From the NCBI GenBank assembly GCA_964422025.1, contig CAYQYZ010000004.1, positions 7,768-71,767 on the forward strand: a DNA stretch of 64,000 nucleotides, in the 5' to 3' direction. Positions within the stretch are counted from its first letter, which is position 1. The number at the start of each line of letters is the position of its first letter. The stretch comes from an uncultured Gammaproteobacteria bacterium (lineage in GTDB: Bacteria > Patescibacteriota > Microgenomatia > UBA1406 > HO2-37-13b). The translations under genes were made by a program, and so were the position numbers. The notes below the pieces were generated by a model, which saw only the letters and a list, made by a program, of their open reading frames with translations, had not been told where the DNA came from and did no database searches. Shown in pieces: positions 4,760 to 54,733 of the stretch.

Positions 4760-4831
4760 GGCACGTTGGCGAAGTGGAAACGCGGGAGTCTGCAAAACTT
4801 CTATGCGCCGGTCCGATTCCGGCACGTGCCT
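4760..4831 (+). tRNA. tRNA-Cys (anticodon GCA)
   Basis: Hand fold: acceptor GGCACGT/ACGTGCC (7/7), D stem GCG/CGC, anticodon arm GGAGT-CTGCAAA-ACTTC, T arm GCCGG-TCCGATT-CCGGC, discriminator U; CCA not encoded. Confidence 0.9.
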
Positions 4832-13481: not shown

Positions 13482-14899
13482 AACGAAATACGGTAATTAG
13501 TGCATTTAGTTTATTTTTTCAAAGTGGATTTAGTGCCGTGTTGGGGTTGGTAGCAAATTTGGTTTTAACAATCCTACTTGCTCCGGCTGTTTTTGGAATT
13601 TATATTACCGTTCTATCACTTATTTCATTACTCAATTATTTTTCCGATATCGGACTTGCGGCTTCACTTGTACAGAAACATGAAATTAGCGATGAGGATA
13701 TCTCAACGACGTTCACGCTTCAACAGCTCCTTATAATCACCATTATTGCAATTGGATTTTTAGGTACTAATTTTGTTACAGAATTTTATAAATTACCCGC
13801 AGCAGGAGTTCATTTGTATTGGGCGCTATTGTTTTCATTTTTTATATCATCGCTTAAAACAATTCCCTCGATATTGCTTGAACGCAAAATTCAATTTCAA
13901 AAAATTGCATTTGTTCAAATAACAGAAAATGTGGTTTTTTATTGCGCCGTAATTTTATTTGCATTATTAGGATATGATTTAGCAAGCTTTACATACGCCG
14001 TAATGTTACGAGCGATAACCGGACTTATTCTTATTTACACGATTTCATTTTGGAAACCAACATTTGGGATTTCAAAAAGTAGTCTACATACGCTGTTGTC
14101 ATTTGGTATTCCATTTCAGGCTAGTTCATTTTTAGCATTGTTTAAAGATGATTTAATAATTTTGTTTTTAAGTAAAGTATTAGGATTTGATGCAGTCGGG
14201 TATATAGGATGGGCGAAAAAGTGGGCGGAAACTCCGATACGGATTATTATGGATAACTTAAGTCGCGTGCTGTTTCCTGTGCTTGCGCGAATTCAGCATG
14301 ATAAAGAAAAAATTTCACGACTTATTGAAAAGATTTTATATTATCAGACAATGCTTTTGGCTCCGGCAATTTTTGGACTATTTATGACAATGCCGGTAAT
14401 GGTTCAGTTGATTCCAAAGTATGCCAAGTGGGAACCAGCGCTGCCATTATTTTACCTTTTCTGTATTAGTGCATTCTTCTCGTCGTATTCGACACCATTT
14501 ATGAACTTGTTCAATGCGCTAGGAAGAGTGAAGACGTCGTTTGCATTCATGTTATTCTGGACAGTAACTACATGGATTTGTACACCACTGTTTACTGCTA
14601 AATATGGAATGTTGGGATTCCCAATTACTCAACTAATATTAGCAACAAGCTCGCTGTTGGTGGCCGGACAAGCTAAGAAATTAGTTGAATTTAGATTTTG
14701 GCATTCAATCTATAAACCATTGATTGCAACAGTCGTTATGGTGATATGTATTTATGCTGGGTTGTCAATAATGCCAGTAACATACTTATCGCTATTACTT
14801 GCAGTAGTCGGTGGAGCGGGAGTATATTTTGGAGTCTTATTTTTCGTATTTAATGTGAACCCTATTAATGAAGTTAAATCACTATTTAATCATGAATAA
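13451..14899 (+). CDS. Wzx-like oligosaccharide/polysaccharide flippase (MOP superfamily)
   Basis: 482 aa, ~12-14 TM, N-terminal pattern KRNTVISAFSLFFQSGFSAVLGLVANLVL typical of polysaccharide biosynthesis (Wzx) proteins. Confidence 0.8.
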   Translation: MDTNKEHRELKRNTVISAFSLFFQSGFSAVLGLVANLVLTILLAPAVFGIYITVLSLISLLNYFSDIGLAASLVQKHEISDEDISTTFTLQQLLIITIIAIGFLGTNFVTEFYKLPAAGVHLYWALLFSFFISSLKTIPSILLERKIQFQKIAFVQITENVVFYCAVILFALLGYDLASFTYAVMLRAITGLILIYTISFWKPTFGISKSSLHTLLSFGIPFQASSFLALFKDDLIILFLSKVLGFDAVGYIGWAKKWAETPIRIIMDNLSRVLFPVLARIQHDKEKISRLIEKILYYQTMLLAPAIFGLFMTMPVMVQLIPKYAKWEPALPLFYLFCISAFFSSYSTPFMNLFNALGRVKTSFAFMLFWTVTTWICTPLFTAKYGMLGFPITQLILATSSLLVAGQAKKLVEFRFWHSIYKPLIATVVMVICIYAGLSIMPVTYLSLLLAVVGGAGVYFGVLFFVFNVNPINEVKSLFNHE

Positions 14900-15869
14900 T
14901 AATACAACCTCGAAGGTTGAACACGCACTACCAACCTCGAAGGTTGTCAAATCAGCCGTTATAGTAGTAAAAGATTACCCGGAACATATTTTCAAAACGC
15001 TCGATTCAGTTCGCTCTTTTGTAGATGAGGTAGTCATTGGCGATATTGGTATTGATGAGGAGCTGTTGGCGAAGCTGAAAAAGATTGAGAATATAAAAAT
15101 AGTTACTGTTACAAAAAAAGTTCCCTATGTTGAATTAATTCGTGAGGAGTTGCATGCGCAAGCAAAAGGAGACTATATTTTAGTTCTTGATTCGGATGAG
15201 ATTGTTCCATCTGCTCTCGCCACCCTGTTGGACTCGGCAGTAGGGAAGTATGACTATGTAAAAGTTCCCCGAAAGAATATTATTTTTGGAAAGTGGATTG
15301 AACATTCACGCTGGTGGCCTGATTATCAAGTGAGATTTTTTAAGAAAGGCTCAGTTGTATGGCCTAAGGTGCTTCATGCACAACCTAAAGCTGAAGGAAG
15401 CGAGCTCATAATCGAACCCAAGGAGGAGAATGCACTTGTTCATTATAATTACAGGGATCTGGATGAATACCTCTCAAAAGCTCCACGGTATGCAAAGGCA
15501 GAGGCGGCAGGGATCCTGAAACAAGTTCAGGATGACAATACTGCTCAAAGTGATACGAGCTTTACCTTCTTTGGTAAAAAAGCGCTGTCTGAGTTTGTTG
15601 GACGATACTTTGCGGATGATGGATATAAAGATGGCATGCATGGATTTGTATTGGCATTCTTGCAAATGATGTATTACTTTCTAGTGTATTTCTATGTATG
15701 GGAATTGGGAGGAAGAAAAGAAGTAGAACAAAAAAGTCTTTTACAGGGCACAGTGCAATTCTTTTCGGATGCATTGTATGAAATAAGTTTCTGGGGAAAG
15801 AAAAAAGGTTTGAGTAATATTTCATTTGTAAAATCGAAATTACATAACTTAGTCCGTAAGTTGTCATGA
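14892..15869 (+). CDS. GT2 glycosyltransferase (paralog of 30144..30998)
   Basis: DSDE (DxD) motif, PRKNIIFGKWIEHSRWWPDYQVRFF block shared with 30144; ATG at 14892 overlaps the flippase stop; contains family-1 and family-2 repeat copies in frame. Confidence 0.8.
   Translation: MNNNTTSKVEHALPTSKVVKSAVIVVKDYPEHIFKTLDSVRSFVDEVVIGDIGIDEELLAKLKKIENIKIVTVTKKVPYVELIREELHAQAKGDYILVLDSDEIVPSALATLLDSAVGKYDYVKVPRKNIIFGKWIEHSRWWPDYQVRFFKKGSVVWPKVLHAQPKAEGSELIIEPKEENALVHYNYRDLDEYLSKAPRYAKAEAAGILKQVQDDNTAQSDTSFTFFGKKALSEFVGRYFADDGYKDGMHGFVLAFLQMMYYFLVYFYVWELGGRKEVEQKSLLQGTVQFFSDALYEISFWGKKKGLSNISFVKSKLHNLVRKLS
14905..14946 (+). repeat. double-hairpin repeat, family 1, copy B (inside CDS)
   Basis: CAACCTCGAAGGTTG-AACACGCACTAC-CAACCTCGAAGGTTG; translated in frame as TTSKVEHALPTSKVV at the N-terminus of the GT2. 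Confidence 0.85.
15511..15537 (+). repeat. hairpin repeat, family 2, copy a (inside CDS)
   Basis: GGATCCTGAAACAAGTTCAGGATGACA; 8-bp inverted repeat ATCCTGAA/TTCAGGAT; read as GILKQVQDD. Confidence 0.85.
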
Positions 15870-17512
15870 AAAAAATATCTGACTATATCTCCTCGCATAA
15901 ACATTTATGTATTGCTGCGGTTGTGTTTTTTTTACTCCGACTACTTTTTTTAGATCAACTATTTTTACTGCATGATGAACGAGATATTGTTCTATCAGGG
16001 TACTCCGTTGCAAAAACTGGACACGATTTATTTGGGAACTTTTTACCAATAAGTTTTGCCGGAATTAGTCCAGATAATCCACTTGTATCGATTTATTATT
16101 CTGCCGTTTGGTGGCTTGTATTGCCGATTAAATCGGTCTTCTTTGCTCGTTTACCGTTTGTATTAATCTCCACGCTGCTCATGTTCTTGGTGTACGAGAT
16201 AGTACGAAGAATTTCGGATGATAAAAGATTGGCGTTTACTTCTGCACTTATATTCTGTTTTTCACCATGGGTGTTTCATGTAACACGACTTGCGATGGAT
16301 TTGCCCTTGGCCGCAGTCACTCTCTTTGGATCCATACTTTTTTACTTGAAGGGGAAAAGATGGTTATCGTATTTACTTTTTTTTCTTACATTTTATAATT
16401 ATCAGGGTTTTCGAGTAGTGATTCCATTCTTGATAGTGTATTTGGAATTGATTAAAGGTGAGTCGGAGATCCTTCGTTTCACTCAGGATGACATAAAGAT
16501 CTTTATACGAAGAAATATTACTAATGTGATGTTTATTGTTTTCCTTTTTGTATCGATTTCATTCATAGATAAAGCGGTTACTGCAAAACGATTTTCACAA
16601 GTAGCTTTCTTAAGTCCTGAACGGTTTACAGCAGAGGTGAATACTCGTCGTGCAGCATCGAACGTTCCATTATTAATTCGAGATGCATTTCATAATAAAA
16701 TAACCGTTGCAGCAGACTATGTAATTGATAACTTTGTTAAAGGGCAGGACATTTCATACTTATTTAAAACCGGGGATTATAGCCCAATTAATGGAAATGC
16801 AGTTGGAGGACAATTTTTCTTTGTATTCTTACTATTCTTTTATTTGGGAATCATGGCGCTCGGGCGTCGGCTTAACAGAAAAGATTTTTATTTAATTGGA
16901 TTTATTTTTCTGGGACTCCTTCCGGCAATGGCATCAGTAAATAGTGCAACGTATTCGATTAGGGGATTTGTGTCGGCACTAGGATATGCATATTTGTTGT
17001 CGTTGGGAGTTGATTTGGGAATTGATCTGACTAAAAGAATGACCAAGACTCCTCGCTACATACTCTACGCGCTCCTTATGATAGTGATGGTCGTTAACGG
17101 ATTGTATTTTACGTATAACTTTTATGAGAGAAAACAGGTAGCGGTGGGAGAGTTATTTAATGAGAGTGAAAAGAGAGTTTCACAATATTTGCTCGATCGT
17201 CCTGAAAAACAATTTACCGTGTATCACGACTTTCCAAAGAATGTCTATCTTTCATATATATTTATGGATAGTGGAAACTCTGCTCCACAAGTTACGGGTA
17301 AAGATGGTGAGGTAGATTCCTACGCATCCAACAATGTTGTATTTGTGAAGTGCCCAAAGCTTATTGACTACGCGACACTTACAAATACGCTCGTTTCCGA
17401 ATCGTGCATGAATCTGAAAACGCATGATCAATTAAATAGCCAAGTCGACTTACAACAAAAGATTCTGTATAAGGATTTATCGCTCAAGACTGCGTATTTT
17501 ATATTTGAGTAG
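15866..17512 (+). CDS. PMT_2/ArnT-like GT-C membrane glycosyltransferase
   Basis: 548 aa multi-TM; first loop LHDERDIVLSGYSVAKTGHDLFGNFLP; ATGA overlap with the upstream GT2. Confidence 0.75.
   Translation: MKKISDYISSHKHLCIAAVVFFLLRLLFLDQLFLLHDERDIVLSGYSVAKTGHDLFGNFLPISFAGISPDNPLVSIYYSAVWWLVLPIKSVFFARLPFVLISTLLMFLVYEIVRRISDDKRLAFTSALIFCFSPWVFHVTRLAMDLPLAAVTLFGSILFYLKGKRWLSYLLFFLTFYNYQGFRVVIPFLIVYLELIKGESEILRFTQDDIKIFIRRNITNVMFIVFLFVSISFIDKAVTAKRFSQVAFLSPERFTAEVNTRRAASNVPLLIRDAFHNKITVAADYVIDNFVKGQDISYLFKTGDYSPINGNAVGGQFFFVFLLFFYLGIMALGRRLNRKDFYLIGFIFLGLLPAMASVNSATYSIRGFVSALGYAYLLSLGVDLGIDLTKRMTKTPRYILYALLMIVMVVNGLYFTYNFYERKQVAVGELFNESEKRVSQYLLDRPEKQFTVYHDFPKNVYLSYIFMDSGNSAPQVTGKDGEVDSYASNNVVFVKCPKLIDYATLTNTLVSESCMNLKTHDQLNSQVDLQQKILYKDLSLKTAYFIFE
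16466..16493 (+). repeat. hairpin repeat, family 2, copy b (inside CDS)
   Basis: GAGATCCTTCGTTTCACTCAGGATGACA, read as EILRFTQDD. Confidence 0.75.
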
Positions 17513-23188: not shown

Positions 23189-24037
23189 ATGGCAGGAATC
23201 GCAATCATAACGGTGGTGTATAAGAATTATACGGTACTTGAGGACTTCATGGAGAGTATTCGAAAGCAGAAAGATACGGATTTTAAGTTGTTTATCGTGG
23301 ATCTAACTGAGAATGCGGTGAGTGTGCTTGATGCGAAAACCTTCGAGGATCCTAAAAAGGGATCCCGAAACGAGTTCGGGATGACAGTTCTACACTCTGC
23401 GAACAAAGGCTATGCGCATGGAATTAACGTCGGTTTAAAAAAAGCGATCGATGAAGGGTTTGAAAAATTCTGCGTAATGAATAGCGATACGTATTTTAAA
23501 GAAAACTTTGTGTCGTCAATTTCTGATTTTTTGATTGCGCATCCACGAACAATTGGAGGCGGGAAAATATACTATGCTGATGGTTTTGAGTATCACAAAG
23601 AATATGCAAAAAATGATTTGGGAAATGTGATTTGGTTTGCCGGGGGGAAAATAGATTGGAATCACGTAATCACCTCTCACGTGGGCGTTGATGAGGTGGA
23701 CGAAGGGCAGTTTAATGAAGAAAAAGAAGTGGATTTTTTAACGGGGTGTATGATGTTTTTTGACAAAGCTGCGTTGGATGTAGTGGGTTTTTGGGACGAG
23801 TCGTACTTTTTATATTATGAAGATGCAGATTGGAGTGTTCGCGCAATAAAGGCGGGCGTACGACTGGTGTACACTCCACGGGTTACCTTGTGGCATAAGA
23901 ATGCACAATCGACTGATGGGGCGGGTTCAAGTATTCATACAAAATATCAGGAAAAGAATCAGGTTAAATTTGGACTTGCGTACGCTCCTTTGCGAACTAA
24001 ACTACACTTACTAAAAAACTTATTCTGGCACAATTAG
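23189..24037 (+). CDS. GT2 glycosyltransferase (rhamnosyltransferase-like subfamily)
   Basis: IAIITVVYKNY start, NSDT (DxD-equivalent), YYEDADWSVRAIKAGV block shared with 32028..32864 (YWEDVDLSLRAKKRGW). Confidence 0.85.
   Translation: MAGIAIITVVYKNYTVLEDFMESIRKQKDTDFKLFIVDLTENAVSVLDAKTFEDPKKGSRNEFGMTVLHSANKGYAHGINVGLKKAIDEGFEKFCVMNSDTYFKENFVSSISDFLIAHPRTIGGGKIYYADGFEYHKEYAKNDLGNVIWFAGGKIDWNHVITSHVGVDEVDEGQFNEEKEVDFLTGCMMFFDKAALDVVGFWDESYFLYYEDADWSVRAIKAGVRLVYTPRVTLWHKNAQSTDGAGSSIHTKYQEKNQVKFGLAYAPLRTKLHLLKNLFWHN
23338..23386 (+). repeat. composite repeat: family-1 half site plus family 2 copy c (inside CDS)
   Basis: AACCTTCGAGG-ATCCTAAAAAGG-GATCCCGAAACGAGTTCGGGATGACA; read as TFEDPKKGSRNEFGMT. 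Confidence 0.75.
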
Positions 24038-30143: not shown

Positions 30144-30998
30144 ATGGACAAAAAAATAACCGTCTTAATTCAAGCGTATAACGAGCAAGAGGAGATTGTG
30201 GAGTGTATAAAAAGCGCCCGTTTACTCAGTCACACTATAATTGTAGTAGATACCGAGAGTACTGATAAAACAGTTTCGTTGGCCAAAGAGCAGAATGTTA
30301 CGGTACATTCATTCCCGTATTCACGGTATGTAGAGCCTGCGAGAAACTTTGGTATCGAAAAGGTTAAGACCGAATGGGTATTTTTGTTGGATGTGGATGA
30401 GAGATTGACAGAGGAGTTGGCGGGGGAGATTGTGGGGATCCTGATCCGCCATGGGCGGAAAGTTCAGGATGACAAGGGTGTGGCTCAAGGTGACCCTCCT
30501 TCGCTCTCCGAGCTACGGGAGGGCAAGCAAGATATTACGTACTACAAACTCCGACGGAAAAATATTTTTGCTGGGAAAAAATGGCTTCAGTATGGCGGGT
30601 GGAATTCAGTAACGGATTATCAGACACGTCTGATTAAAAAAAGCGCATTTAAAGAATGGCCACAAGCGATTCACTCGACTCCTATTATTGAGGGTGAAGC
30701 GGGCCTGCTCAAAGAGCCATTACTACATTATTTTCACAAGAATTTAGAAACGATGGTTGCAAAAACTGCGGTGTATGAAGATGTTGAATCGGATCTTTTA
30801 TTTAAGGCAGGAAAGCCGGTTTCAACCGCCACGTTCTTTAGAAAGTTTTTAGGGGAATTATATCGACGTTTTTTTAAGTTTCAAGGATTTCGGGACGGAA
30901 CATTGGGAGTTATTGAATCGGTGTATCAGGCTTTTTCAAAAACAATAACCTATTTATTTTTGTATGAAAAGTATCATGAAAAAAATTCTAATCGTTGA
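30144..30998 (+). CDS. GT2 glycosyltransferase (paralog of 14892..15869) carrying a ~30-aa repeat-derived insertion
   Basis: ITVLIQAYNEQEEI, VVDTESTDKT, LLDVDE motifs; insertion IRHGRKVQDDKGVAQGDPPSLSELREGKQ is absent from the paralog. Confidence 0.85.
   Translation: MDKKITVLIQAYNEQEEIVECIKSARLLSHTIIVVDTESTDKTVSLAKEQNVTVHSFPYSRYVEPARNFGIEKVKTEWVFLLDVDERLTEELAGEIVGILIRHGRKVQDDKGVAQGDPPSLSELREGKQDITYYKLRRKNIFAGKKWLQYGGWNSVTDYQTRLIKKSAFKEWPQAIHSTPIIEGEAGLLKEPLLHYFHKNLETMVAKTAVYEDVESDLLFKAGKPVSTATFFRKFLGELYRRFFKFQGFRDGTLGVIESVYQAFSKTITYLFLYEKYHEKNSNR
30436..30523 (+). repeat. hairpin repeat, family 2, copy d, long form (inside CDS)
   Basis: GGATCCTGA-TCCGCCATGGGCGGA-AAGTTCAGGATGACA nested hairpins, then CCCTCC...GGGAGGG hairpin. 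Confidence 0.8.
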
Positions 30999-32889: not shown

Positions 32890-34518
32890 ATGAAAACAAA
32901 ATTAATACTACTTGGAATAATTGTTTTGACAGTCCTTTTACATGTTGTGAAAGTAAAGTCGCTTCCTGTCTGCTTGAATGCAGATGAGGCTGCATTTGGA
33001 TATAACGCGTATAGTCTCTTGAAGACGGGAAAAGATGAATATGGCGCCATGCTCCCATTAAGACTTAAATCCTTTGGAGATTATAAACTTCCATTATATT
33101 CATATCTCTCAGTTCCCTTTATTGGTGCAATGGGACTCACAGAAACTTCAACCCGCGCACTTGCGATGCTGATTGGAATTCTATTCCCATTAGTAGTATA
33201 TTTTTTGACAAAAGAATTATTTGAGGATGAACGGATTTCTTTGCTTGCGGCGTTTCTAACAGGCGTTTCCCCGTGGATCCAAATCACCGCTCGGCATGCA
33301 CATGAAGCACCATTGGCAGTATTTCTACTAACCATAGCCGCAACGTTACTGCTAAGATTTATTAAAACTAGTGAGAAAAAATATTTGTATTGGTTTGCGT
33401 TTGTAGAATTGATGAGTTTATTTGCATATCACTTAAGCAGACCAATTGTATTGGGGATGATTGTGTATTTGGGAGTTGTACTCTTATTAAGGAGAAAACA
33501 CCTAGATCCTTCGACTCGTCGTACCTCCTCGCTCAGGATGACAAGCCGACTTATTGCCGCGGCATTATTACCTTTAGTGGTATTTACGTTTACTGACGTT
33601 TTATATAATCCAACTCGGTTAAAAAATTTGATTTTCTTTAATGACGGGGGATTCAAACTTTCAATTAAACAAAAGTTGACAGAAAAGAATTTGCCAATTA
33701 TTTACAATCCGGTAACACAAAGCTTGTTGGATTTACCTAAAGAATACATAAAGTATTTCTCACCAGAATTTTTAGTTGTTCATGGTGACACGAATTATCG
33801 ATTTGGCTATCCGGGAATCTCTCTCATCTCTCTCGTCGAGTACGGCATGGTGTTTGTGGGGTTATATTTCCTAATAAATAAGCGGCCAAAAAATATGTCG
33901 TACATCCTCTTTTTACTCCTCATTGGACCTGTTGCCGCGTCACTTTCTTTTTTTGAATATTCAGCAACACGATCGATATTCATGGTGGTTCCGATGTTAA
34001 TTATTGCATCATATGGAGCGATTTCATTAGTCAATTCTCTTACTCGCCGTTACAGAGTATGGGCGGCTGTACTTCTTTTTGTTGCATTTGGATTCTTTAA
34101 TTTTATGACCTGGGACTTTTACTTTTTTCATTACCCATACAGAGCGGTCACTGTACGATCGTGGCAATGTGGATACAAAGAACTTGCACAATATGTAAAT
34201 ACTAATTACGATAAATTTGAGAAATTTAATATTACAACTCGAAATGGGGAACCATATATTTTCATGCTGTTTTATTCAAAGTATCCACCGGAATTATATC
34301 AGAAACAGGCCACACTCTCTCCACCTGACGAGTATGGGTTTGGACAAGTATGGAAGTTTGATAAATACGATTTTCAATTTAATGTAGATCATCCAAAAGA
34401 GGGGACTTCGTATATTGGATATCCGGAGCATTTCAAAGATAAAGCAGATATTGACACTTCTAAGATTCAGAAAATAACTGCAGGGACAGAAGAGATGTTT
34501 TATATATACGAACCGTAA
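32890..34518 (+). CDS. PMT/ArnT-like (GT39-type) GT-C membrane glycosyltransferase
   Basis: 542 aa multi-TM; first-loop motif CLNADEAAFGYNAYSLLKTGKDEYG; soluble C-terminal domain. Confidence 0.8.
   Translation: MKTKLILLGIIVLTVLLHVVKVKSLPVCLNADEAAFGYNAYSLLKTGKDEYGAMLPLRLKSFGDYKLPLYSYLSVPFIGAMGLTETSTRALAMLIGILFPLVVYFLTKELFEDERISLLAAFLTGVSPWIQITARHAHEAPLAVFLLTIAATLLLRFIKTSEKKYLYWFAFVELMSLFAYHLSRPIVLGMIVYLGVVLLLRRKHLDPSTRRTSSLRMTSRLIAAALLPLVVFTFTDVLYNPTRLKNLIFFNDGGFKLSIKQKLTEKNLPIIYNPVTQSLLDLPKEYIKYFSPEFLVVHGDTNYRFGYPGISLISLVEYGMVFVGLYFLINKRPKNMSYILFLLLIGPVAASLSFFEYSATRSIFMVVPMLIIASYGAISLVNSLTRRYRVWAAVLLFVAFGFFNFMTWDFYFFHYPYRAVTVRSWQCGYKELAQYVNTNYDKFEKFNITTRNGEPYIFMLFYSKYPPELYQKQATLSPPDEYGFGQVWKFDKYDFQFNVDHPKEGTSYIGYPEHFKDKADIDTSKIQKITAGTEEMFYIYEP
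33504..33544 (+). repeat. hairpin repeat, family 2, copy e (inside CDS)
   Basis: AGATCCTTCGACTCGTCGTACCTCCTCGCTCAGGATGACA, read as LDPSTRRTSSLRMT in a predicted loop. Confidence 0.75.
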
Positions 34519-45619: not shown

Positions 45620-48600
45620 ATGGAAGAAAATTTAAAAGACGCAAAATTCGTAGATTTCTCAGGACTTAAGATTACATTGGCTTCACCAGAAGTTATGACC
45701 CAGTGGTCATACGGAGAAGTCACCAAGCCTGAAACAATTAATTATCGAACATTTAAGCCTGAAAAAGATGGTTTGTTTGACGAGCGCATTTTCGGACCTA
45801 CCAAAGATTACGAGTGTTACTGTGGAAAATACAAACGAATTCGATACAAGGGAATTATTTGTGACCGCTGTGGAGTTGAAATTACCACAAACACCGTTCG
45901 TCGTGAACGAATGGGACACATTAAATTAGCTGCTCCAATTGCTCATATTTGGTATTTTAAAGGCGCATCGTCACCATTGAGCGTATTGCTCGATATTACC
46001 TCTAACAACCTAGAACGCATCATCTATTACGCTCTGTACCTCGTTAAAGACGTTGATGAAACCAAACGAGACGCAGCACTTTCAATCGTTAACAACCTAA
46101 AAGACGATGAAGTTAAAGTACTTGAAGAATGGAAAAAAGTTGAAGAAGATAAAGTAGAAGTAGAGCTTGCCAAAGCTAAAGAAGGGGTTGAGAAAAAAGT
46201 AAAAAACGTAGAACAAAGAGAATTGATGATGCATGAAACTGAATTTAAATTCAGAGAGCGAATAACCTCAATTACCCAGGTATTCAATGAGAAAAAAACC
46301 GAAAAAGGCATTTTTTATGAAAGAATCTTGAAGGTTATTAAAGGCGCAATGTCACTTTCCGTTGTAGAAGAAGAAGATTTCATGTTCTTACGAGAAAATG
46401 AAGCACATGAATTCTTGCAAGTAGGCATGGGATCAGAAGTAATTCTGGAAGTACTTTCTGCAATGGACCTTGACGGCATGTACAACGAATTTGTTAAAAA
46501 ACTCATTAAAGCTAAAGGCGATAAACGAACACGACTGCTTAAAAAAGTACGATTAGTTGAATCATTCATAAAATCTGGTGTTTCGCCAAAATGGATGGTA
46601 CTCGTAGTGCTTCCAATTATTCCTCCAGATTTGCGCCCAGTAGTGCAACTTTCAGGTGGAAAATTTGCAACAAGCGATTTGAATGATTTTTATCGACGCG
46701 TTATTAACCGAAATAACCGATTGAAGCATTTGATTGAACTTGGTGCTCCTGAAATTATTCTTCGAAACGAAAAACGAATGTTACAGGAATCAGTTGATTC
46801 ACTTATTGACCTTTCAAAGTCACGAGGTGGAAAAACTGCGCAATCACGAAGCAAAGCCCTTAAGTCACTCTCAGATGTTCTTAAAGGTAAGAGTGGACGA
46901 TTCAGACAAAACTTGCTTGGAAAACGTGTAGATTATTCCGGACGATCAGTTATTATTGTCGGACCAGAACTGGCCTTAAATCAATGTGGTATTCCAAAAG
47001 AAATGGCATTGGAATTGTTTAAGCCATTCTTACTTCGTGAAGTAATTATTCGTGGACATGCTCAAAATATTAAGAGCGCTAAAAATTTCTTGGAAACAAA
47101 AGATCCAATTATTTATGACATTTTGGAAGAGATTACTCGAAATCACCCGGTTATTTTGAACCGAGCACCAACCTTGCATAAACTTTCAATCCTAGCATTC
47201 TACCCAGTACTAACTGATGATTATGCTATCAAACTGCATCCAACTGTATGTCAAGGGTACAATGCCGACTTTGATGGAGATCAAATGGCTATTTTCGTTC
47301 CACTTTCTGAAAAATCAATTGAAGAAGTAGAAACACGCATGATGCCGCAGCAAAATTTGCTCAAACCATCTGATGGTACTCCAATCGTAGTTCCAAACAA
47401 AGAAATGGCGTTGGGAGCCTATTATTTGACCACATTTGATGCTACGTACGACAAACTTAAAGACGAAGAGTTGATGCACTTTAGTGGTGCCGATGAAGCT
47501 TTGCTTGCTCATGCGAGTGGATCTATTCAAACTCGACAACCAATGAAAGTAAAAATTGGCGATGAGATTCTAAAAACCACTGTTGGACGCATTATTTTTA
47601 ACGCACGACTTCCAGAAGCCTTGCAATTCCATAATGAGCCCGTAAAAGCAGCTGATTTGAAGAGCATTGTAGTTGCCGCAACGACATTATTCGCAGGCGA
47701 TGAAGCACTATTAATCACCCTGATTGACAACTTGAAAGAGATTGGTTTTATGGGAGCAACCATTTCTGGAGGAGTTTCAGTATCGCTGTTCGACTGTATT
47801 ACGGTTCCGGAACGCGAAGGATTGATTAAGATTGCTGAAGGAAAAGTAAAAGAAATTGAAGATAATTACTTTAATGGACTTATTACCGAAGAAGAGAAGA
47901 AAAGACTTTCAAATAACGTGTGGATCGATGTAACCGAAGACATGGCTAATCGAACATGGGATGCGATTGATGAAGAAAATCCAGTAAAAATCATTATTAA
48001 CTCAGGAGGAGCTCGTGCTTCGCGTGAAAACATGAAGCAATTGTCAGCCATGAAAGGACTCGTTATAGATCCGTTGGGAAAGATTATTGAAGTTCCAACA
48101 AAATCGAATTACCGAGCAGGATTGACCATTTTTGAATACGTAATTAATGCTCGAGGAGCCCGAAAAGGACTTATTGACTCGGCTCTTAAAACTGCTGATG
48201 CAGGATACTTAACTCGACGATTGGTTGACGTTTCGCATGACATGATTATTCGTGAAGAATTATGTACAACAACCGAAGGACTCGTTATTACTAAAGAAGG
48301 CGAACGAGGAGAAAAATTCAATGATCGAGTAAAGGGACGAATGCTATTGAAAGACGCTACTGGCGCCAAGAACAAAGTAATCGTAAAAGCAGGAGCTATT
48401 ATTACTGATGAAGAACTTGCTGACATGAGCAAGAATGAGGTTACACGTGTAACAGTACGAAGTGCTCTGCATTGTAAGACTGAATACGGAGTTTGCCAAG
48501 GCTGTTATGGAGTTGACCTTTCAACACATAAATTAGCCGATGTTGGAGTTCCAACGGGTGTGGTTGCTGCACAATCAATTGGAGAACCAGGAACTCAGTT

Positions 48601-49690
48601 GACGATGCGGGTTCGACATTTTGGAGGAATTGTTATTGCCGACGTTACCCAAGGGTTGCCACGAGTCGAAGAATTATTTGAAACTCGAACACCAAAAGTA
48701 TTCTCACCAATTTCAGATGTATCTGGAAAAGTGAGTATTATGGAAGACACTGACCGCGCAGTATTTGTAATCAAAGTGCAGTCGGATGTAGATGGTGCTG
48801 GAAATGAACGAGAATTTATTGTTCCAAGCAATCGAAAATTGAAAGTAAAGCATGGACAATTAATTGCTTCAGGACAGTCGCTGTGCGAAGGATACTTGGA
48901 TATTAAAGAAGTACTCTCAATCAAAGGACTTGAAGAAGCGCAAACATACTTGTTAAACGAAATTCAAAAAGTGTATGAATCACAAGGAATTGCGATTCAC
49001 GATAAGCATTTTGAAGTCATTATTCGAAAAATGAGCGACAAGGTTATTATTGAAAACGAAGGAGACACTAAATTTATTGTCGGAGAAGTCGTTTCAATGT
49101 ACCGGTTTGAACGTGAAAACAAAAAAGTATTGGCTCAAGGTGGTCGACCAGCCGTTGGAAGAGTATCAATTCTTGGAATTACTCGAGCCGCTATGTATTC
49201 GGATTCATGGTTGTCATCGGCATCATTCCAGGGCACGACAACTATCTTAACTGAGGCTTCAATTAAGGGTCAAGTTGATGGGTTGCTGGGACTGAAAGAA
49301 AATGTTATAATTGGGCGTTTGATACCGGTGACTGCGCAACTATTAGATAAATACTATGGTGCGGGAGGAACATCAGAACTTTCAAAGTCACTTCCGGTAG
49401 AGGCCGTTGTACCAAGTGCAGAAGTGATCTCTGAGCTCTCTGCAGCACCTTTGATGGCAGATATGGCCGAAGAAGGAATGGGAGAAGTAGAAGCGGGAAC
49501 CGAAATGGTTGATAACGACGGAGCACCACTTGAAGAGAATTTGGATGAAGATATCGCGGTTGACGCGCTTGAAAGTGACGCAGACGACGCTCCCGATGCT
49601 CTCGACGAGGCCAGTGGAGACATGACGCAAGCTGAGGTTGCAGAGGAAGCGACGGAAGTAGAAGGAGATTCCGAAACAAGTTCGGAATGA
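45620..49690 (+). CDS. rpoC: DNA-directed RNA polymerase subunit beta-prime, with acidic C-terminal extension
   Basis: 1356 aa; Zn finger [22 protein letters not shown], catalytic [10 protein letters not shown]; starts 1 nt after the rpoB stop. Confidence 0.98.
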
Positions 49691-49713
49691 CGTATGAGTA
49701 AGTTGAGACAGGC

Positions 49714-49744
49714 GGAGATTCTTCGCTAACGCTCAGAATGACAA
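49714..49744 (+). repeat. hairpin repeat, family 2, copy f (rpoC-rpsL spacer)
   Basis: GGAGATTCTTCGCTAACGCTCAGAATGACA, degenerate copy of the GAGATCCTTCG...CTCAGGATGACA form. Confidence 0.6.
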
Positions 49745-54067: not shown

Positions 54068-54139
54068 GAGATCCTGAAACAAGTTCAGGATGACCCGACT
54101 TCGTTATGTTCAAGATGACAAAGGTATGATTCAAGACGA
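54068..54139 (+). repeat. hairpin repeat, family 2, copy g, plus two degenerate tail boxes (intergenic)
   Basis: GAGATCCTGAAACAAGTTCAGGATGAC (identical core to copy a), then GTTCAAGATGACA and ATTCAAGACGAT. Confidence 0.8.
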
Positions 54140-54733
54140 TTAGAGTTTATAATCGCTTTGCATTTTCGTCACAAAATTCTCAAAATCCGTATAAAGTTCT
54201 GCGTGAATGCCAAAGTGCTTGGCGACGTCGACATTTTTTTCAGTGTCGTCCCAGAACATGATTTGATCTTTCTTGAGTTTTAACGACGCCACCACCATTT
54301 CATAAAATTGCACCGTTGGCTTTTTGTGGCCAATGTGCGACGATGCAAACACGCCATCGAATGCGTCGGCAAATCCCATATTTTTTAACATATATTCGAT
54401 CCGATTTTTTTCTTGATTGGTAGCAACGTAACACATAATATTTTTCGCTCGAAGTTCCTGAATATACCCAATTAGTGCTTCATCGATTTTGTGTTCTGAC
54501 TCAAACCAATATTGCAAAAATGCATCCACTCCCCCCTGCCAATTCCATTTGGCTAAAAATGGCGGCAAAATATCGCGCAGATCCTTTTTTCCCACAATTG
54601 TGTCTTTAAACGGGCCTTTAAAAAATTCATGTGTAGTTTCCTCTGTGAGGCCTTTTTCTTTAGCCAGAACGCGAGAAAACTTTTCACCGTTTAATAACAC
54701 CCCATCCGCATCAAACAATATTGCTTTAATCAT
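54140..54733 (-). CDS. HAD-superfamily hydrolase
   Basis: Motif I LFDADGVLL at the N-terminus (ATG at 54733), motif IV-like FWDDTEKNV. Confidence 0.85.
   Translation of the reverse strand: MIKAILFDADGVLLNGEKFSRVLAKEKGLTEETTHEFFKGPFKDTIVGKKDLRDILPPFLAKWNWQGGVDAFLQYWFESEHKIDEALIGYIQELRAKNIMCYVATNQEKNRIEYMLKNMGFADAFDGVFASSHIGHKKPTVQFYEMVVASLKLKKDQIMFWDDTEKNVDVAKHFGIHAELYTDFENFVTKMQSDYKL

Follow-up and report, generated by a model that had tools for sequence, protein, structure and literature searches.

The closest described systems to the repeats reported here are the hairpin targets of the Ssn nucleases and the palindromic elements of Rickettsia. Chenal et al. (2025, Nat Commun, PMC11893778) described the NTS motif, CGTCATTCCCGCGMAVGCGGGAATCYRG, and a broader group of Ssn-related motifs (SRM) that includes the Neisseria dRS3; these are hairpins of 20 to 50 nt with an oriented conserved flank. 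In that study, ssnA encodes a 94-amino-acid (aa), single-domain GIY-YIG (cd10448) nuclease and lies in an NTS-ssnA-NTS arrangement laid out like an insertion sequence (IS); Ssn binds the hairpin, and its cut falls a few nucleotides upstream, on single-stranded DNA (ssDNA) only and on one strand only. NTS cluster around membrane and surface genes, 2% of them are intragenic in N. meningitidis, and Rickettsia is among the SRM-rich genera; the paper reports neither in-frame insertions nor hosts from the candidate phyla radiation (CPR). The Rickettsia palindromic elements (RPEs; Ogata et al. 2000, as summarized in PMC10969869) are described there as frequent in-frame, translated palindromic insertions that are predicted to be compatible with protein folds. 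Here we analyzed 64,000 nt of contig CAYQYZ010000004.1 (positions 7,768 to 71,767; hereafter the window) from an uncultured Roizmanbacteria (CPR/Microgenomates), in which a gene for a family-2 glycosyltransferase (GT2) at 30144..30998 carries an in-frame insert built from short hairpin repeats.

The host gene (30144..30998, + strand) encodes 284 aa and matches PF00535 (E = 1.9e-17), and a Foldseek search with its model returned the GT-A enzymes SunS, WrtF, TarP, and SpsA; its product is, as judged from sequence and model, a family-2 glycosyltransferase with a GT-A fold and a DxD motif. Both aspartates of that motif, D83-V-D85 in LDVDER (30390..30398, +), were invariant in 42 orthologs. The whole insert occupies codons 98 to 129 (30435..30530, +; peptide GILIRHGRKVQDDKGVAQGDPPSLSELREGKQ), with boundaries uncertain by ~2 codons. 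Its first residue, G98, lies 13 residues past the DxD, close to the ~15 counted in an earlier note on this DNA that was made from the sequence alone.

We collected ortholog DNA from 87 loci, mostly labelled Candidatus Roizmanbacteria; 76 of these yielded the LDxDER-to-RKNIF stretch. The gene order GT2-GT1-GT2-PMT_2 around the host gene was conserved across the orthologous loci. Close homologs ranged from 251 to 300 aa, and this length variation was confined to the position of the insert (alignment A1). The LDxDER-to-RKNIF segment had a mode of 35 aa (24 species) and measured 33 to 37 aa in about half of the 76 orthologs, against 61 aa in the window; only one locus, L001, had a longer segment (64 aa). 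The syntenic ortholog P0013/L085, at 77% identity, had a 33-aa segment with no insert (DEILQLEGSVTHYKL). It is thus not so that most homologs have a segment of equivalent length, the result that the earlier note had named as a refutation; 30435..30530 is an insertion, with a net gain of 26 to 28 codons over the insert-free orthologs. The earlier note had called this a repeat-derived, in-frame insertion in a GT2 catalytic domain, and both the ortholog comparison and the repeat family described below support that reading; the note was right in kind, and had left the repeat itself unidentified.

That reading had been based on a second GT2 gene in the window, the distant paralog at 14892..15869 (+), which begins at M9 of ORF 14868, the start used by its orthologs. 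BLASTP confirmed that the two products align on both sides of the element (26% identity, E = 2e-20), with a 26-residue gap in the paralog opposite the insert and a 6-residue gap in the 30144 product opposite the paralog's QVQDDN region. The note had further taken this reciprocal presence and absence as a sign of recent insertion. That part does not hold: at only 26% identity the two genes are ancient paralogs, and the comparison therefore cannot date the insertion. Moreover, the three-part architecture of the insert is common to the window and L082, a locus 90% identical and from a different sample, and related versions occur down to ~70 to 80% identity.

Rereading the sequence reproduced exactly the letters and nested hairpins that had been described at 30436-30523. 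The arms ATCCTGA (30438-30444) and TCAGGAT (30464-30470) flank TCCGCC-ATG-GGCGGA (30445-30459), and CCCTCC (30494-30499) pairs with GGAGGG (30518-30523) around an inner GCTC/GAGC stem. The outer arms belong to unit 1, a full hairpin of 39 nt (30435..30473, +; GGGAT-CCTGA[...]AAGTTCAGG-ATGAC) that was found by the covariance model R1 introduced below (23.5 bits, E = 0.0019), by the stem scan, and by folding. Comparison with simple 27-nt units, e.g., the one at 54068-54094, indicates that a 15-nt hairpin (30445..30459, +) is nested in the loop of unit 1, where it stands in place of the usual AAC loop for a net gain of 12 nt. The next 21 nt (30474..30494, +; AAGGGTGTG-GCTCAAGGTGAC) are a partial copy of the unit's right arm, with homologous pieces in L083, L001, and L082; partial outer-arm tails of the same period lie behind units in many metagenome loci and also before the GIY-YIG gene of L211. 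Unit 3 (30489..30528, +; GGTGA-CCCTCC...GGGAGGG-CAAGC) is decayed and still folds through CCCTCC/GGAGGG and the inner GCTC/GAGC stem; its homologs in L083 and L001 are GGCGACCCTTCGACTGCACTCAGGGTAAGC and the canonical GAGACCCTTCGCTCTGCTCAGGGTGAC, respectively.

RNAfold reproduced the described stems in the 88-nt segment at -36.8 kcal/mol, an energy that is only modestly unusual by itself (z = -2.0; 7/200 shuffles). The GC content of the insert was 0.58 to 0.61 in 90-nt windows, against a mean of 0.40 for the whole window, and composition is thus more telling than fold energy here. Rfam gave no match at the insert or at the other units, and a scan of the whole window at gathering thresholds returned three tRNAs only (tRNA genes lie at 4760, 35820, and 56577). 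An intein or other excised element was considered and rejected: the segment is ~30 aa long, with no domain and no Rfam match, and every ortholog variant keeps the frame and is free of stops, as expected of translated sequence.

The window holds further copies of the same repeat. The unit reads GRGAT, an 8-bp stem, a 5-nt loop, the other side of the stem, and ATGAC on the + strand, and GTCAT...ATCTC on the other strand. The string CAGGATGAC occurred 5 times against 0.28 expected, and a stem-aware scan of the window recovered 7 units against 1.3 hits in shuffles. We built the covariance model R1 from 18 units, in which G1, G3, A4, and T24-G25-A26-C27 are invariant, and ran it with filters off; the units at 30435 and 33504 were not in the training set. 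In the window, R1 returned 8 units and no more, each of them on the + strand. The window copies belong to one repeat family. Five of the eight lie inside genes and one forms the end of rpoC, such that 6/8 touch coding sequence.

The paralog GT2 carries a unit named copy a (15510..15536, +; GILKQVQDD; R1 41 bits), in frame and in the sense direction. In the earlier note this was an extra ~6 residues at a site where 30144 has none. Copy a is indeed the same repeat at a different site and is lineage specific (in alignment A2, the distant orthologs are 8 to 10 residues shorter and P0128 is without it), but the extra length is ~8 to 10 residues and not 6. In P0122, an ortholog of the paralog, six extra residues (GILKPPSEGRQVQDD) lie in the copy a loop, nested as in window unit 1. 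From these two cases, unit loops seem to be preferred secondary insertion points.

Among the other intragenic copies, one lies in a PMT_2-type membrane glycosyltransferase gene (15866..17512; Pfam PMT_2) at 16466..16492 (+; EILRFTQDD; R1 37.3 bits), and another is read in a different frame in a third GT2 gene (23189..24037) at 23359..23385 (+; GSRNEFGMT; R1 38.1 bits). A long-loop unit (DPSTRRTSSLRMT) sits at 33504..33542 (+; R1 20.6 bits, E = 0.009) in a PMT_2 gene at 32890..34518. Its site is a length-variable loop between predicted transmembrane segments, with units only in the close clade; among relatives, L083 and L088 have different or extra units there, and L089 and L002 are shorter. 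At 49665..49691 (+; R1 41.3 bits), a unit contributes the final 8 codons (GDSETSSE*) and the TGA stop codon of rpoC (45620..49690; identified by rpoC Pfam domains); repeat sequence seems to have taken the place of the native C-terminus of this essential gene. A second, intergenic unit follows 24 nt downstream, before rpsL (49715..49742, +; R1 36.2 bits). The remaining copy, at 54068..54094 (+), is an intergenic canonical unit (GAGATCCTGAAACAAGTTCAGGATGAC; R1 43.3 bits) with decayed partial arms extending to ~54140; its 27-mer recurs unchanged in the metagenome contigs described below. All intragenic units are in the sense direction in + strand genes, though ~40% of the genes are on the - strand; this uniformity could come from replication direction, as for ssDNA-dependent elements, or from frame constraints, and the sample is small.

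Other lineages show the same GT2 site in a variety of states. L002 has one simple 27-nt unit (GAGATCCTGAAACGAGTTCAGGATGAC) at the site, and L083 has a unit (GAGATTCTTCGCTCCGCTCAGAATGAC) followed by a 21-nt partial right arm (AAAGGTGTTGCTCAGGGCGAC) and a degenerate unit (..GACCCTTCGACTGCACTCAGGGTAAGC). An extra tandem unit is present in L001, and L082 has the architecture of the window. When R1 was run on 536 kb of ortholog loci, ~14 of its 33 hits (E ≤ 1) fell at this one site, with units in + orientation in the window clade and in L023 and in - orientation in L017; the stem scan placed an antisense unit there in L006. Complete head-to-head doublets, antisense and then sense, stand in frame at the site in L014 (3295-3375) and L015 (3283-3357), from two further Roizmanbacteria species, where they encode peptides such as VIASEAKQSQSKQEIASSPSAPRND. 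Insert-bearing and insert-free taxa were interspersed in a neighbor-joining tree with the variable region masked, and we infer at least five independent events. Because both orientations and whole doublets occupy the site in other lineages, it is a recurrent hot spot and not the product of one recent event. The doublets have inverted ends, and no clear target-site duplication is seen at the GT2 site, where the boundaries are blurred by the resemblance of the host E-I codons (GAGAT) to the unit's 5' end. Host E-E-I codons (GAGGAGAT) were also considered as the target site itself; they are suggestive at two sites, but the unit of the window clade starts two codons past the host E-I, and we keep this as an observation.

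Comparison of the window with L082 shows what has been conserved within the insert. Substitutions at the three codon positions numbered 3/4/4 in the insert versus 22/13/81 elsewhere in the gene (Fisher P = 0.04), and amino acid differences numbered 6/32 versus 22/253 (81% identity within the insert). The closing pair of the nested hairpin was changed on both sides, from C-G to T-A. Thus, the peptide is weakly constrained while the hairpin is kept, although these numbers are small. AlphaFold2 predictions with and without the insert, as the earlier note had proposed, differed only locally. With the insert (pLDDT [predicted local distance difference test], 86), a helix spans residues 90 to 109, residues 110 to 128 have a pLDDT of <50, and a strand starts at 131; in the insert-free P0013 (pLDDT, 91), the helix spans 90 to 97, and the strand starts at 103 after a turn of 5 residues. 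Elsewhere, the predicted elements were identical. The insert is therefore predicted to lie at a helix-to-strand connection, lengthening the helix after the DxD strand and adding a floppy, disordered loop, with the GT-A fold predicted to be unaffected; for the enzyme, it may well be neutral.

The repeat extends far beyond this organism. An exact 27-mer, GRGATCCTGAAACRAGTTCAGGATGAC, was present in at least 120 metagenome contigs, with GC contents from 0.23 to 0.68. Among the matches listed, there were 126 copies, of which 87 lay outside long ORFs and 39 within them (23 sense and 16 antisense). The units read GTC, ATCCTGAA, CTTGT, TTCAGGAT, CTC. Many form head-to-head doublets, [GTCAT..ATCTC], 15 to 25 nt, [GAGAT..ATGAC], whose stems differ by compensated changes, and many are trailed by partial outer-arm tails. 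It is important to note that our earlier pair counts were partly circular, as the stem scan required the outer 5 pairs; we relied instead on an unbiased scan for G[AG]GA-N4...N4-TGAC frames with no imposed pairing. These frames were bimodal, with 246 fully paired, in 8 stem types, where ~5 were expected, and the stems covary. Partial outer-arm copies are also repeated in tandem every ~21 nt. They lie on the GTCAT/ATGAC side of full units, which is the side of reported Ssn cutting (L211, 1385-1477; window, 54095-54140 and 30474-30494). In L129 (580-698), three identical tandem units recur with a 46-nt period, made of the 27-nt unit and a near-identical 19-nt spacer, in an array-like arrangement.

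We clustered all ORFs around the 120 matches listed, and the top recurrent neighbor, at 6 loci, was a protein of 95 to 104 aa that consists of a GIY-YIG domain only (PF01541), with a - unit upstream and a + unit downstream. Its close homologs (69 to 79% identity) are named from Candidatus Levybacteria and Microgenomates. It has a weak match to the UPF0213 protein 1ywl, and against NCBIfam these ORFs reached only sub-threshold scores, for group I intron endonuclease. For instance, in L213, from a Microgenomates metagenome-assembled genome (MAG), GTCATCCTGAACTTGTTTCAGGATCTC at ~1452-1479 precedes an ORF at 1501-1791, and AGATTCCGAAACAAGTTCGGAATGAC ends at ~1825; L211, from a Levybacteria MAG, has the same layout plus four tandem 21-nt partial arms in front. 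R1 confirmed the units in both of these NCBI MAGs, and both bracketed genes encode 96 aa. The flanking units have the same sequences as the window copies at 54068 and 49665. The second most recurrent neighbors among the matches listed were genes for 23S_rRNA_IVP four-helix bundles (PF05635; L105, L146, L160, and L168), an indication that these hairpin ends are common to several small cassette genes. As far as sequence can tell, the units are SRM/NTS-like hairpins associated with genes for small, Ssn-like GIY-YIG nucleases.

We consider it likely that the translated insert in 30144 derives from dispersed ~27-nt hairpin repeats that are non-autonomous derivatives of GIY-YIG cassettes and spread by ssDNA cleavage and repair. 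Under this model, the units would be selfish, the cut would fall beside the hairpin, and host repair would complete the copy. A full unit would have arrived at the helix-to-strand connection past the DxD, a 15-nt hairpin would later have invaded its loop, the right arm would have been copied again as 21 nt, and the third unit would have decayed. The 21-nt partial arms may be by-products of the process, lying as they do on the side of reported Ssn cutting. In a gene-dense CPR genome most copies would land in genes, and the survivors would be those that are in frame, free of stops, and placed in tolerant surface connections.

Several points weigh against this model. Transposition of NTS/SRM has been proposed but never demonstrated (PMC11893778). 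The published SRM search string, HGTCWYN(0-2)YYVSBRHN(0-5)WNVSBRGN(0-2)RNCYNB, rejected all five unit types and had no match in the window; a regular expression made from it accepts NTS, and the units fail at the S positions of the stem, being too A/T-rich. With 23S_rRNA_IVP as the second neighbor, the GIY-YIG gene may be a passenger and not the driver, and some of the hits that make up the GT2 hot spot may go back to a single ancestral insertion in the window clade. A GIY-YIG gene did not turn up in tblastn searches of the 64-kb window and the 536 kb of Roizmanbacteria loci, nor in ~7 kb of sequence next to the window, so the presence of the nuclease in this genome is not established. The ~7 kb at one end of the window contained no unit either, and the sequence past the other end comprised a 3-kb contig only. 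Searches of the window and the 536 kb with the four-helix-bundle proteins by tblastn were also negative, and ten small ORFs of the window (NUDIX, Rce1-like, LysM, HAD, DUF5671, and others) included no Y1 and no GIY-YIG protein.

The window also contains a large envelope glycosylation cluster at 6654-34518, with a Polysacc_synt flippase, at least four GT2 genes, one GT1 gene, and several membrane proteins of the PMT_2/GT39-like kind. Another palindromic repeat family, CAACCT-NNN-AGGTTG, is unrelated to the hairpin units and has 9 matches in the window against 0.13 expected (14905-14946, 1770-1810, 21552, 32866, 34581, 42214, and 61425), mostly just 3' of genes. The paralog has two of these repeats in tandem and in frame at its 5' end, where they give rise to extra N-terminal residues (TTSKVEHALPTSKVV) that are missing from most orthologs.

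The placement of the units invites a different explanation, namely that the hairpins are selected signals, marking surface-related genes for Ssn-type ssDNA cleavage and modulating recombination or DNA uptake as NTS do in Neisseria, and that they must sit in coding sequence because a CPR genome has almost no intergenic space. Envelope glycosylation genes between 14.8 and 34.5 kb do hold 5/8 of the units, recalling the clustering of NTS at membrane and surface genes (PMC11893778), and all 8 units are on one strand. Selection on the hairpin would also fit its maintenance by compensatory change and a third-position divergence that is lower in the insert (4/32) than in the rest of the gene (81/253). 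However, about half of the orthologs have no unit at all at the GT2 site, orientation differs between lineages, and units decay (unit 3 and the tails at 54095-54140); these numbers are small, and no nuclease gene was found in the available sequence of this genome. We regard such a signaling role as rather unlikely to be the explanation. We are slightly more doubtful still that the units are REP/REPIN-like or MITE-like elements (repetitive extragenic palindromes, their doublets, and miniature inverted-repeat transposable elements), moved by a REP-associated tyrosine transposase (RAYT)/IS200-IS605 Y1 enzyme or a DDE transposase, with the GIY-YIG genes as passengers. The head-to-head doublets with their 15- to 25-nt spacers resemble REPINs, the strand uniformity in the window would suit such a mechanism, and a second small gene family (23S_rRNA_IVP) also recurs beside the units. 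Yet no Y1 transposase of the RAYT or IS200/IS605 kind was present among the ten small ORFs of the window or the recurrent neighbors of the 120 matches listed, a target-site duplication is not evident at the GT2 site, and the oriented GTCAT flank with its hairpin fits NTS and not GTAG-type REPs.

Local slippage or template switching at a quasi-palindrome could in principle have produced the insert with no dispersed element at all. The insert-free ortholog already reads GAGATTCTTCAG, which resembles the 5' end of the unit, and the 21-nt duplications of partial arms suggest local copying. This account is largely refuted, and we give it very little credence: 27-mers that are nearly the same stand at 7 further positions of the window and in the at least 120 unrelated contigs of 23 to 68% GC, and antisense units and complete doublets occupy the GT2 site in other lineages. 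The idea that the segment is ancestral GT2 sequence, such as a lineage-specific functional loop, or else an assembly artifact, is refuted by the ortholog and repeat-family data. The insert is in frame and stop free, and it is 81% identical to that of L082 in amino acids; its composition, hairpins, and membership in a repeat family argue otherwise, as do the nearest insert-free ortholog and the modal state, both of which lack it. An identical protein is recorded in an NCBI assembly and in a separate Logan assembly of SRR12762304, and the architecture is repeated in a different sample.

Returning to spread by cleavage and repair, the GT2 site in orthologs offers a natural before-and-after series, with empty, single, tandem, nested, antisense, and full-doublet states, and these states argue that the hairpins move or are copied to new places. 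The description of Ssn nucleases and their hairpin targets dates only from 2025; it presents the targets as almost entirely extragenic and their mobility as a hypothesis. In gene-dense CPR genomes the hairpins become parts of proteins, and selfish repeats can in this way remodel protein loops. It is a bolder and more tentative idea, which we would not yet favor, that CPR units of the Ssn/SRM type and their gene-less doublets have real mobility and, as a general source of loop insertions in proteins, keep hitting the same permissive sites in envelope glycosyltransferases and even provide the C-terminus and stop of rpoC. If true, the in-frame palindromic elements of Rickettsia would exemplify a much wider process with GIY-YIG ssDNA nucleases as its driver, and the copies inside genes might also serve in cis as signals modulating recombination at surface-glycosylation genes. 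The 96-aa Microgenomates GIY-YIG protein and a defined 27-nt substrate provide a test system for the nuclease, and the tolerance of a GT-A enzyme for up to 29 extra residues beside its DxD is a structural question. Further, many odd low-complexity peptides in CPR annotations (such as ..ILRSAQDD.. and ..VIASEAKQS..) are repeat derived and call for caution.

In comparison with the known systems, the units resemble NTS/SRM in their form (GTC, an 8-bp stem starting with AT, a 5-nt loop, and then C-Y-N), in their oriented, non-palindromic flanks (5' GTCAT..., 3' ...ATC-Y-N), in their many dispersed copies (8 per 64-kb window, besides the 27-mer of the metagenome contigs), in stems that vary between lineages with compensation, and in the repeat-gene-repeat layout around a ~95-aa gene with a GIY-YIG domain only, found in related organisms (the 6 metagenome loci and the MAG loci L211 and L213). 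They differ in their CPR/Microgenomates host, in their A/T-richer stems, in the share of copies that touch coding sequence (6/8 in the window versus 2% of NTS being intragenic in N. meningitidis), and in that no nuclease gene was found in the available sequence of this genome. The published SRM definition thus misses an A/T-richer subfamily, and the present units extend both that definition and the known genomic behavior of these repeats. With REPs and REPINs they have in common short GC-rich hairpins, an oriented flank, inverted doublets, clustering, partial copies, and a proposed single-strand mechanism; however, they are without a RAYT, their flank is GTCAT and not GTAG, and one 27-mer is common to contigs of widely different GC content, whereas REPs are species specific and extragenic. 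Classical bacterial MITEs (Correia, ERIC, Nezha, and others) are likewise non-autonomous, with a terminal inverted structure and occasional in-frame ORF fusions. The units are much shorter, each "terminal repeat" is itself a hairpin, and their putative parent encodes a GIY-YIG nuclease rather than a DDE transposase. A full-text literature search with the unit sequences returned only unrelated primer hits, and a search on palindromic repeats in CPR returned nothing relevant. The nearest known parallel comes from Rickettsia, whose RPEs, in the description of PMC10969869, are also palindromic repeats in frame within unrelated housekeeping genes, translated, and predicted to be fold compatible. 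By that same description, RPEs are set apart by a length of ~100 to 150 bp and a conserved peptide, whereas the present units are 27 nt long, are read in several frames, and are nested and tandemly patched; given that Rickettsia is listed as an SRM-rich genus, the two may be related. What is new here is that hairpin repeats of the Ssn-related type behave like the in-frame palindromic elements of Rickettsia, and do so in a CPR host.

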